From a virus (taxonomy: Duplodnaviria; Caudoviricetes), in the IMG/VR virus record IMGVR_UViG_3300013121_000041, positions 1 to 64,000 of that record: a stretch of 64,000 bases of DNA; one strand, 5' to 3'. The position numbers and the translations under genes are program-made. Under the pieces are notes generated by a model, which worked only from the letters and a program-made list of their open reading frames with translations, did not search any database and was not told the DNA's origin. Shown piece after piece: positions 13,243 through 16,857 of this stretch; the first letter of the stretch is position 1; every line of letters begins with the position of its first letter.

Positions 13243-13294
13243 ATTTTTTCGCAATATTGGTCATCCTGACGGCGATCTATGAATGGAGTGCCGG

Positions 13295-13975
13295 ATGACG
13301 ACGTTCGCGGTATCAGATTTCTTCGCCTATCTCAATTCCGGTCAGGTTTCAGCGTCCACCGATTTTACGGTGATCGTATCGCGAAACCAGAATGCCACGA
13401 CGACGAACATGGCGACCAACGGACAGGCCCTCATGTACCGGACGGACTCCGTCAACCTCCCCGGACGGACGGTTTCGACGATGGACCACGTCGTCTATGG
13501 ACTGGCGACACCGATGGCCTACGGATCGCGGGTGTCAAACGAGATTACGACGACGGTTATCCTCTCGGAAGACCTGCGGGAAAAGCTGTACTTCGAACGG
13601 TGGATAGACGAGATCGTCGGTCCCTACCGGACGGTCGATCATGCAAAAAATATGTACGACATCAAGTACCTCAAGGATTACTCGGGGACGCTCCTCATTT
13701 CCGTGTACGACGCCAAGGCCAATTGCACGTATCAAATTACGTGTACCGATGCCTTCCCCGTCGAAATCGCCGACGGCAACCTCAGTTGGGCGCGCGGTAG
13801 TGAGGGCGGCGTCTCCCGTCTCACCGTCAAATATAAATTCAAGCGATACAAAGAATTGAATTCGACGGTCGGCAACGGGGCGGCGGAAGCTCCGCAATCC
13901 GAGTCGAATGCGACCGACCAATCGACGGCGACGGCGACGTCGCCCAACGCAACTCAAGCAGTAACACAGGATTGA
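13295..13975 (+). CDS. Baseplate-tail tube initiator gp54-like (gp19 family)
   Basis: SVNLPGR, YFERWID, AFPVEI..LSW tube-family motifs; RBS favours ATG 13295. Confidence 0.65.
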   Translation: MTTFAVSDFFAYLNSGQVSASTDFTVIVSRNQNATTTNMATNGQALMYRTDSVNLPGRTVSTMDHVVYGLATPMAYGSRVSNEITTTVILSEDLREKLYFERWIDEIVGPYRTVDHAKNMYDIKYLKDYSGTLLISVYDAKANCTYQITCTDAFPVEIADGNLSWARGSEGGVSRLTVKYKFKRYKELNSTVGNGAAEAPQSESNATDQSTATATSPNATQAVTQD

Positions 13976-13982
13976 CGTTATC

Positions 13983-14708
13983 ATGACCATGACACTCCCG
14001 AAGATCGTGACGCCCGAATGGACCACGACGCTCCCCCTGACGAACGTCGAAGTTCGTTACCGCCCCTACCTCGTGAAAGAGGAGAAGATACTCCTCACGG
14101 CGATGGAATCGTTCACAGGAGATAACGTCGCCGTCATCGGCGATGCCGTCAAACAGATCATCAAGAATTGCATCATCACGGCGATCAACGTCGATGACGT
14201 CCCGAATGTTGACGTCGAGTGGCTGTTCATCCAGATGCGCAAACATTCTGTCGGCGAGACGATCGATCTCAAGATCGAACACAAGGCCGGTGGTTGTGGT
14301 CACATCAACAAAGTCACCGTCCGCCTCGACGACGTCAAGTACGTCTGCCCGGAGGGACACGAGCGATCGATCAAGTTGACGGAAACCGCAGGTATCGTCA
14401 TGCGATACCCCGATCTGGGGAAGGCGATGAAGATCGCCGAGAGGAAAGATGCGACGGCCGCCGTATTCGACCTGATCATCGACTCCATCGACAAGGTGTG
14501 GGACGGTGACGATTTCGAAAGTGCGTCGAAGTTTTCCCGTGAGGAACTCAAGAATTGGGTCGAAACGTTCAACTCGGAGCAATTCCGCCAGATGACGAAG
14601 TTCTTCGAAACGATGCCGTCACTTCGGACGGAAATTAAATATACGTGTGAGAAGTGTGGCGTTGAAGAGACGATGGAGGTCAAGGGGGCCGGTGATTTTT
14701 TTATCTAA
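13983..14708 (+). CDS. gp26: Baseplate hub assembly protein gp26-like
   Basis: LPKIVTP..YRPYLVKEEKILL..D.EWLFIQMR..SVGE..MRYP..FFETMP..C..CG..G..DFF. Confidence 0.85.
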   Translation: MTMTLPKIVTPEWTTTLPLTNVEVRYRPYLVKEEKILLTAMESFTGDNVAVIGDAVKQIIKNCIITAINVDDVPNVDVEWLFIQMRKHSVGETIDLKIEHKAGGCGHINKVTVRLDDVKYVCPEGHERSIKLTETAGIVMRYPDLGKAMKIAERKDATAAVFDLIIDSIDKVWDGDDFESASKFSREELKNWVETFNSEQFRQMTKFFETMPSLRTEIKYTCEKCGVEETMEVKGAGDFFI

Positions 14709-14893
14709 GCCTCCTGCACGACAACCTCGCCAACCACTACCTGACGAATTTCGCGATGGTGGAGGGCGGGGCGTTCTCGCTGTCGGAATTGGACGCCCTG
14801 CTGCCATATGAAAAGGAAATCTACCTCCAATTCATGGTGGATCGAGCGAAACAGGCTCGCGAGGGAGAACAGCGGGAATCGTTCCCGCAGTAA
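14696..14893 (+). CDS. gp51: gp51-like C-terminal module in the -1 frame of gp26 (probably reached by frameshift)
   Basis: Not in the ORF track. The -1 frame reads FFYLSLLHDNLANHYLTNFAMVEGGAFSLSELDALLPYEKEIYLQFM..., matching the gp51 Y.TNF.M..SL.E...P.E.EIY pattern. Confidence 0.75.
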   Translation, partial: FFYLSLLHDNLANHYLTNFAMVEGGAFSLSELDALLPYEKEIYLQFMVDRAKQAREGEQRESFPQ

Positions 14894-14919: not shown

Positions 14920-16857
14920 ATGTTGGACGAACTGCCGCTGACGGAAAACTTCGACAAACAGACGATCAAGAATCTGTTGGATCGTCTTGATGCGACGACC
15001 GATAAGGTCGACGAGATGTTGGACGCCTCGGGCACAAACTTGGAGCACATCTCGAAGGCCGAAAAGGAGGCCCTCGAAGCCCTCCGCGCGGCGAGAACGT
15101 ACCTCATTGACATTTCCCAAGGGACTAAAAAAGACACCGATGCAAAAATCAACATCGTGACTAATTTTGTCAGGAGTGAGATTGAGAGTCTGGAAGAATC
15201 CTACAAAACGATTCAGGCGATGATCAATCCGTCTTTGATTTCACCACCAGAAACATCACAGCCGACGAAATCTCTGTTCGCTCAGGACGGTTCGAATCCA
15301 GTTTCCGACGTGGCCAAGGCGACCAACATCAAAACGACAGAGCAAACGTATTCCATCAACGTTCCTGAAAGTCTGGACGGACAGAAATCGGCCATCGCCG
15401 CCGTCCGCGAAGTCGATAAGAGCGGGTTCGTCGCCCCGATCGTTGAAAAGTTGAATGAGTTGATTCACGTCTTTACCGATGGCGTCGTCCGTTTTGCCGG
15501 GGACGTCGTCGATAAAGCAAAACCCTATCTTGAGGACATCAAAAAACAGACGGCCGAGATGAACTCCAAATTCGGAGAGATGGCCCGTCGGGTGTCTGGG
15601 CCGATCGTCAAAGCCCTACATCCTTACATAGAGGCCATGATGCCAGTCCTGACGCCACTCGGCAAGGCACTGTCGGCGCTCGGTCGATGGATGATCCCCA
15701 CCGAAATTCGAAAACCCCTCGGGATCAAAGGGGGGGCATTCGACAAGATCGCCGACTTCGGGCCGGAGGCGGCCAATGCTCTCGTGAAGAGGGCCGTCGG
15801 CCGAATCTTCGACGTCACCCTCGGTGCCATCGTCGCCACCATTAAAACTGCGTTCAGCGTTCCACTCCTCGCAGTCGCGGCCCCGATCGTCGCCGCAGAA
15901 CTCGCCAATTGGCTGATGGGATCGAAGGAAGCCAAGGCTGGTGAATCATCATCATTCTCAAAATTCGTCGCCGACCACCTCACGTCGATATTAGCTGGCG
16001 TCGCTGGCGTCGGTCTCGTCGTCGTCGCCGGGGCGTCTCTTCCGGTCATCATCGCGGGTGCCCTCGTCGGCGGTGCGATCGCCATCATCGGAAACATGGT
16101 CGGCAACTGGGCGGGCGGCGATGATTGGAAGACGGGCTTCGCCAAGGCCCTCGATAATGTCGGAACGTTATTCATGGGACACTGGAATCGTTTCCTGAAA
16201 TGGGCCGAAGACATCAAGCTGCCGACACTATCGACGATACTACCTAAGATGGAAGGTCTCGAATCGTGGAATACGTGGCTGAGGAACTTCCTACACCCGT
16301 CCCCTGAACTCATTACCGAGAGTGAGAGAAAAAAGGCCGAGGCCAATTCCGAAATTCTGTCTATCCAGAAACGACAGAACGACGAAAGTGTGGGGATGGA
16401 AAGGCGGGCACTCGATGGCCTCATGCACGTCGGTAAAATACTCGACGACGTCGTCCGATCATTTGAAAATATGGTCGTTGCGATCGGCACTATGGTCAAA
16501 AACGCCACCCTCAAAATTCTCGGTATGCAGCCAGCGGAACCGAAGACAGAGGGTCCGGCCAAACCCGTGACGATCGAAACGATGGTCGATTCCGAGGGGT
16601 TCATCAAGGGCACCCGCAATAAACTCGCACCGTCCGTCGTCGAACGTGGCGTCATCGACATATTGAGACAGAACACCCCACGATCCGCCGCCGCGAATGC
16701 GAGCGTCGTGTCAGCCCCGACGGTAGTTTCGGCCCCGACGTCGATCAATAATTCATCGTCGTTCGTCAATTCGTCGACTACCGTCACGACCGTCCAACCA
16801 CGACCATACGACAACATGTCTGATTACAGGTTCCGTATGCCAGCAACGCCGTTTTAA
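14920..16857 (+). CDS. Putative tape measure/baseplate hub protein (gp29-like)
   Basis: 645 aa, helical, central hydrophobic Ala/Gly/Val stretch, C-terminal SAPT..NNSS tract; follows gp26/51. Confidence 0.5.
   Translation: MLDELPLTENFDKQTIKNLLDRLDATTDKVDEMLDASGTNLEHISKAEKEALEALRAARTYLIDISQGTKKDTDAKINIVTNFVRSEIESLEESYKTIQAMINPSLISPPETSQPTKSLFAQDGSNPVSDVAKATNIKTTEQTYSINVPESLDGQKSAIAAVREVDKSGFVAPIVEKLNELIHVFTDGVVRFAGDVVDKAKPYLEDIKKQTAEMNSKFGEMARRVSGPIVKALHPYIEAMMPVLTPLGKALSALGRWMIPTEIRKPLGIKGGAFDKIADFGPEAANALVKRAVGRIFDVTLGAIVATIKTAFSVPLLAVAAPIVAAELANWLMGSKEAKAGESSSFSKFVADHLTSILAGVAGVGLVVVAGASLPVIIAGALVGGAIAIIGNMVGNWAGGDDWKTGFAKALDNVGTLFMGHWNRFLKWAEDIKLPTLSTILPKMEGLESWNTWLRNFLHPSPELITESERKKAEANSEILSIQKRQNDESVGMERRALDGLMHVGKILDDVVRSFENMVVAIGTMVKNATLKILGMQPAEPKTEGPAKPVTIETMVDSEGFIKGTRNKLAPSVVERGVIDILRQNTPRSAAANASVVSAPTVVSAPTSINNSSSFVNSSTTVTTVQPRPYDNMSDYRFRMPATPF

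Follow-up and report, generated by a model that had tools for sequence, protein, structure and literature searches.

A probable programmed −1 frameshift joining gp26 to a gp51-like tail in a divergent, uncultured T4-type phage

The pair gpG/gpGT of bacteriophage lambda, and with it a conserved −1 frameshift of tail assembly genes, reportedly goes back to work by Levin, Hendrix and Casjens in 1993 and by Xu, Hendrix and Duda in 2004. The lambda heptamer on which the shift takes place is G_GGA_AAG. In the dnaX gene of Escherichia coli, a −1 frameshift is helped by an upstream Shine-Dalgarno stimulator, and there the shift truncates the protein. As for T4-like phages, gp26 and gp51 were classed as hub assembly chaperones by Leiman et al. 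2010 (PMC3004832), who also report that gp51 is required for assembly yet absent from the particle, as expected for a chaperone. They were then recognized as the tail assembly chaperones of T4-like phages by Vladimirov, Gautam and Davidson (Virology 2022, 566:9-15, PMID 34826709), a paper that we know through the passages citing it in PMC10274946 and PMC12846349; our literature search on these two genes found no direct account of a gp26/gp51 frameshift. According to these passages, poly-T slippery sequences are known in the TAC-N genes of T4-like phages (PMC12846349), and some T4-like phages have a short gene and a long fusion gene in place of frameshifting (PMC10274946). The frameshifted gp26/gp51 chaperone is, therefore, already published for T4-like phages, and the locus described here is one more, divergent example.

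The window (the whole stretch of DNA that was analysed, 64,000 nucleotides long) belongs to a 111-kb metagenome-derived virus contig, 61% complete; the features discussed below are collected in Table 1. Like the TAC-N/TAC-NC genes of T4-like phages, as far as the citing passages describe them, the locus is of family PF12322, carries the poly-T site at the 3′ end of the short gene, lends itself to the same lambda G/GT reading and stands in the same contrast to the phages with a short gene and a long fusion gene. It differs in that the phage is uncultured, with 54% GC and a gp26 whose identity to any protein of the databases searched does not exceed 45%, and in that its slippery run is made of seven T's, whereas six T's followed by a C are commoner among its relatives. 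With lambda gpG/gpGT, it shares the order tube, chaperone, tape measure, a slip site near the end of the short ORF, a predicted long form made of the short form plus a small C-terminal domain, and an N-terminal chaperone fold. In contrast, the heptamer is T_TTT_TTT instead of the lambda one, there is no sequence similarity between the proteins, gp26 has about 140 extra residues, and the tail of the phage is contractile, with a baseplate hub of the T4 type.

Table 1. Features of the gp26 locus and its neighbours (positions are those of the window).
Feature	Position	Strand	Basis
Tube-family gene, 230 aa, directly upstream of gp26	13283..13975	+	phrog_45 'tail tube', E 2.3e-18
gp26, short form (TAC-N), 241 aa	13983..14708	+	PF12322, phrog_150, AlphaFold2 model
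Predicted long form (TAC-NC), 240 + 63 = 303 aa	13983..14893	+	Conceptual −1 fusion
Shine-Dalgarno-like AAGGGGG, 7 nt upstream of heptamer	14682..14688	+	Possible dnaX-type stimulator (inferred)
TGA closing the −1 frame just 5′ of the slip site	14693..14695	+	Sequence, −1 translation
Slippery heptamer T_TTT_TTT, in phase with the gp26 frame	14696..14702	+	Sequence
−1 frame extension, 63 codons + stop	14702..14893	+	Homology to C-terminal tail of T4 gp51
Zero-frame stop TAA, one codon past the heptamer	14706..14708	+	Sequence
Possible downstream hairpin, weak evidence	14712..14787	+	Folding vs shuffles
Tape-measure candidate, 645 aa, directly downstream	14920..16857	+	phrog_167 tail length tape measure, E 9e-7

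The gp26 ORF ends with GGT GAT TTT TTT ATC TAA, and the run of seven T's starts at position 3 of the Asp codon, which puts it in the X_XXY_YYZ phase. The −1 frame, closed by a TGA immediately before the run, opens exactly at the slip site and stays open from 14696 to a stop at 14891-14893, i.e., over 65 codons. The initial annotation had described both the heptamer and this frame, and the sequence and its translation confirm them. The predicted junction peptide, ..GAGDFF followed by YLSLLH.., is the outcome expected from simultaneous slippage on the heptamer. The first ATG of the −1 frame lies at 14756, 18 codons past the slip, and no purine-rich Shine-Dalgarno motif is found in the 15 bases that precede it. 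One has to keep in mind that the evidence from this single genome is weak, as GAT TTT TTT for Asp-Phe-Phe has a probability of about 0.05 given the codon usage of 35 long ORFs of the window (54% GC); the weight comes from conservation, the heptamer being found at 179 of 182 related loci (see below). A +1 reading (14596-14808) was also considered and rejected: in the window, this frame crosses the junction with 71 codons free of stops, but relatives keep it open for only 5-49 codons and show no conservation of it, and its openness in the window is probably a by-product of GC content.

The identity of gp26 that had been proposed from the sequence is borne out by its match to PF12322 (T4_baseplate), at 183.2 bits against a cut-off of 24.5 (E 7e-54, profile positions 2-218 of 219), and to phrog_150 (E 1.7e-61); the PF12322 domain was also recovered by a genome search of the window's record. 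The −1 ORF matches phrog_634 ('baseplate hub assembly catalyst', gp51) over its residues 2-56 (E 4.7e-14), so that the gp51-like homology does begin ahead of the first ATG, as previously noted. It also matches residues 207-249 of T4 gp51 (BLASTP, E 0.001), and a tblastn search found the extension matched in 463 phage records. The location of the pair between a tube-family gene and a tape-measure candidate is likewise upheld by the PHROG matches on either side, giving the order tube family, chaperone, tape-measure candidate, with a weak match for the last of these, which has a long hydrophobic central stretch. The upstream gene has no BLASTP similarity to T4 gp54, and that of the tape-measure candidate to T4 gp29 is not significant, so the roles of the two neighbours rest on PHROG profiles and position.

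In T4 itself, genes 26 and 51 are indeed separate, as the genome shows; they are adjacent and divergently transcribed. T4 gp26 (208 aa) consists of the PF12322 domain alone, and T4 gp51 (249 aa) of a PF12322 domain over residues 1-201 followed by a tail, all in one frame. T4 thus has two copies of PF12322, compared to one each in the window's record and in nine other complete genomes (S-WAM1, Atu_ph04, Vibrio phages D479, phi-ST2 and K452, Pelagibacter phage Mosig, Aeromonas phages Ah1 and AsSzw2, and Salmonella phage S118). When the conceptual −1 fusions of 28 loci were aligned with both T4 proteins, they followed gp51 collinearly across the junction without a break, and T4 gp26 ended three residues past the conserved Phe-Phe. 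Judging from this alignment, the predicted fusion product corresponds to gp51, and the protein made without a shift to gp26, domain for domain; the difference is that T4 has two paralogous divergent genes without a frameshift, whereas the window has one gene. This leads us to amend the proposal that the −1 ORF is gp51. Its homology to the tail of T4 gp51 stands, but it cannot be called gp51 on its own, because it matches only the last ~45 residues and residues 1-201 of T4 gp51 are a second PF12322 domain; the name belongs to the predicted fusion product.

The initial annotation had suggested comparing gp26/gp51 junctions across T4-like phages, and had held that relatives devoid of the slippery site would speak against a frameshift. 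The outcome of this comparison is strongly positive. Of 182 related loci, 179 have a T_TTT_TTN in phase close to where the gp26 homologue ends: T_TTT_TTC/T/A in 32 out of 35 loci from named phages and IMG/VR contigs, and the heptamer in all 147 further non-redundant metagenome and IMG/VR loci (TTTTTTC in 128, TTTTTTT in 19). Overall, the site is made of six T's then C at 147 of these 179 loci. The gp26 proteins of heptamer-bearing loci are only 20-45% identical to that of the window, and the carriers include Kyanoviridae, one Agrobacterium phage, phages of Stenotrophomonas, Pseudomonas and Acidovorax, and non-T4 Straboviridae of Vibrio and Aeromonas. The geometry is kept as well, with the heptamer followed by one codon and the stop in 164 of the 179 loci (26/32 for the named phages and IMG/VR contigs, 138/147 for the metagenome and IMG/VR loci). 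Among the exceptions to this spacing, the heptamer and the stop are separated by 8 codons in Pelagibacter phage Mosig (L005:1490-1525) and by 3 at another locus (L026, 2195-2217), and a third has nine T's in a row, immediately followed by the stop (L023, 2220-2235).

The codon before the T run always ends in T in the 147 loci (AGT, TCT, GAT, AAT, GCT, GGT), even though the encoded residue varies between Ser, Asp, Asn, Ala and Gly; such an invariant wobble T is a signature of selection on the RNA and not on the protein. The conserved Phe-Phe itself could partly reflect a protein constraint. Downstream of the junction, the motif P-[WYF]-[EQ]-[RKF] is kept in 147/147 extensions, and the first ATG of the extension frame falls anywhere from codon 1 to codon 43 across relatives, so there is no conserved initiator for the extension. 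At the protein level, the best 120 of 1082 homologues (E <= 1e-20) are 228-246 aa long and end with Phe-Phe plus 0-3 residues, exactly one residue in 116 of these 120, and no in-frame long form is found among them. No relative above 45% identity to the window's gp26 was found by protein search in the databases used, and a degenerate DNA pattern over the gp26 C-terminus had no other match in IMG/VR.

Taken with the chaperone fold described further below, these observations make it very probable that the gene encodes a tail assembly chaperone in two forms, 241 aa and 303 aa, the longer one being produced by a ribosomal −1 slip on T_TTT_TTT. The lambda G/GT-like reading put forward initially is, thus, well supported by geometry, conservation, collinearity with gp51, fold and gene order, and it agrees with what has been published for T4-like phages; as comparative sequence evidence goes, the case could hardly be stronger. 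Most ribosomes would reach the TAA at 14706 and make the short form, equivalent to T4 gp26 and lambda G, while a minority would slip back one base with two tRNA-Phe on the TTT TTT of the heptamer and read the −1 frame to 14893, making the long form, equivalent to T4 gp51 and lambda GT. If lambda is a guide, the N-terminal part shared by both forms would coat the product of the neighbouring tape measure gene, and the C-terminal tail, which is rare, would bring in subunits of the tube or hub, in which case the slip rate would set the ratio of short to long form.

The same two proteins could come from slippage of the RNA polymerase, adding one U on the T7 run so that a fraction of the mRNAs would have both parts in frame; as the protein product is identical for a polymerase or a ribosomal −1 slip, the product alone does not tell them apart. 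The seven T's of the window and the nine T's of one relative (L023) would suit such a process. However, most sites have only six T's before a C, and a T6 run is too short for efficient polymerase slippage. Moreover, the run always begins at codon position 3, and polymerase slippage needs length, not phase. We thus favour ribosomal over transcriptional slippage, and consider the latter improbable; PMC10274946 also takes the 'other mechanism' of Vladimirov et al. to be separate short and long genes. An error in the homopolymer is another explanation: if the true run were T8, the locus would be one ordinary in-frame gp26-gp51 gene, or else a decayed one. Homopolymers are error-prone, the contig is derived from a metagenome, and no near-identical second assembly was found. 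Nevertheless, the same out-of-frame layout recurs in 179 of 182 independent loci, some of them from cultured phages that many laboratories have sequenced, and the best 120 of 1082 protein homologues all stop at the same place, which makes an error hardly credible.

Alternatively, the locus could make two unlinked proteins, with gp26 ending at 14706 and the tail ORF starting at the ATG at 14756, or at a non-canonical start nearer the stop, to give an unfused peptide of 45-63 aa. Public records do annotate 'gp51' ORFs of 31-60 aa, some heptamer-bearing phages have an ATG 2-3 codons past the slip, and the Ackermannviridae and Vibrio phage K452, which lack the heptamer, have an overlapping TAATG start. 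In the window, though, the first start codon lies 18 codons in without a Shine-Dalgarno motif, and a start there would cost the tail its best-conserved part. Relatives have their first ATG at varying positions, the tail is fused in frame in T4, and two separate proteins would leave the invariant heptamer and wobble T unexplained. For the window, we regard this arrangement as very improbable, somewhat more so than polymerase slippage and less so than a homopolymer error, and we retain a ribosomal −1 slip.

The heptamer is absent from 3 of the 35 loci, namely those of Salmonella phage S118 and Dickeya phage JA15, both Ackermannviridae, and of Vibrio phage K452 (L039:1680-1870, L043:1690-1860 and L038:1600-1810, respectively). 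In JA15 and K452, the tail ORF begins at an ATG overlapping the stop (TAATG), and S118 has ATT at that place; these genomes have one PF12322 gene. Since the Ackermannviridae and one vibriophage group do without the heptamer and have this overlapping start, the tail may be a separate small protein that works unfused in some lineages. The overlapping start may then be a third way of making the tail, beside the frameshift and the gene duplication of T4.

Surveys conducted in E. coli are not known to rank U_UUU_UUU with the most efficient heptamers of bacteria. Regarding possible stimulators of the slip, 167 of 173 related loci have a Shine-Dalgarno-like 4-mer at positions −15 to −10 relative to the heptamer, compared to 9% of control windows in the same genes; because the motif overlaps conserved [E/K]-G codons, selection at the RNA level and at the protein level are not separable in this figure. 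The arrangement recalls dnaX, where such an element also lies about 7-10 nt upstream of a homopolymeric heptamer, with the difference that the shift would extend the protein here instead of truncating it; the role of stimulator is putative in our case. Downstream, a hairpin starting 9 nt past the heptamer can be folded in the window, but it is only modestly better than shuffled sequences (MFE −31.5 kcal/mol, z −2.5, equalled by 2 of 200 shuffles); at the junction, a 58-nt fold was no better than shuffles and an 88-nt fold had a z of −2.5. No stimulatory structure is conserved downstream: ten junctions gave folds unlike one another (z from −4.5 to +1.7), and the median z of the survey is −1.6.

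A bolder view would be that the Shine-Dalgarno-like element at −15 to −10, T_TTT_TTY, exactly one codon and the stop form a deeply conserved composite cassette that sets the ratio of short to long chaperone in T4-like phages whose hosts differ widely, from which the T4 duplication and the separately initiated tail of the Ackermannviridae would be two independent escapes. We put this forward tentatively and consider it rather unlikely in this full form. The upstream element, the spacing rule and the Ackermannviridae solution would be new if they lie outside what Vladimirov et al. 2022 covers.

An AlphaFold2 model of gp26 was built from 32 homologues (pLDDT 88.3, pTM 0.83) and compared exhaustively to 48,161 representative chains. 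The model is a confident one. The first three ranks, over model residues 1-100, went to 3fgx (Z 7.8, rmsd 4.0 over 85 aligned residues), 2ob9, which is the chaperone of HK97 (Z 7.3, rmsd 4.9 over 86), and 3klu (Z 6.6, rmsd 5.5 over 87), exactly the three that PMC9603447 lists as the solved phage tail assembly chaperones. They are followed by 5ir0, an uncharacterized protein of a Vibrio PICI-like element (Z 5.5), and, at rank 5, by an unrelated chain (Z 4.9). The model, thus, supports a tail assembly chaperone fold for residues 1-100 of gp26: the Z values are middling, but the specificity of the top three is persuasive. Searching solved structures with the gp26 sequence profile found nothing, and Foldseek with the model returned nothing at E <= 0.001, 2ob9 appearing at E 1.8.

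Past this fold, gp26 has a second domain of ~140 residues (about 100-240) with four nearly invariant cysteines, located near 105, about 110, 222 and 225 in the window protein and resembling a zinc ribbon. T4 gp51 has weak zinc-ribbon matches in Pfam. Lambda-type chaperones, in contrast, are devoid of this cysteine-bearing domain.

The way in which these genes are annotated leads to a practical remark. In the public records that we inspected, the tail part is either a truncated ORF of 31-60 aa or missing, and none has a joined CDS, which indicates that the published insight has not reached genome annotation. For the window, the corrected annotation would be one chaperone gene upstream of the tape measure, with predicted products of 241 and 303 aa, replacing gp26 and an orphan 45-aa 'gp51'. 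Left as they are, gene finders will continue to miscall this core chaperone gene in cyanophages and other marine T4-like phages. More generally, T4-like phages can be taken off the list of exceptions to the tail-chaperone frameshift rule, and the credit for this goes to the 2022 paper. One GenBank record labels a gp51 homologue 'tape measure protein assembly chaperone'. In eight public phage records (L001, L002, L003, L004, L005, L007, L008 and L009), the gp51-like region is annotated as an ORF of 31-45 aa from the first ATG, or is left unannotated, and in the S-WAM1 record the gp26 gene is called from a later start.
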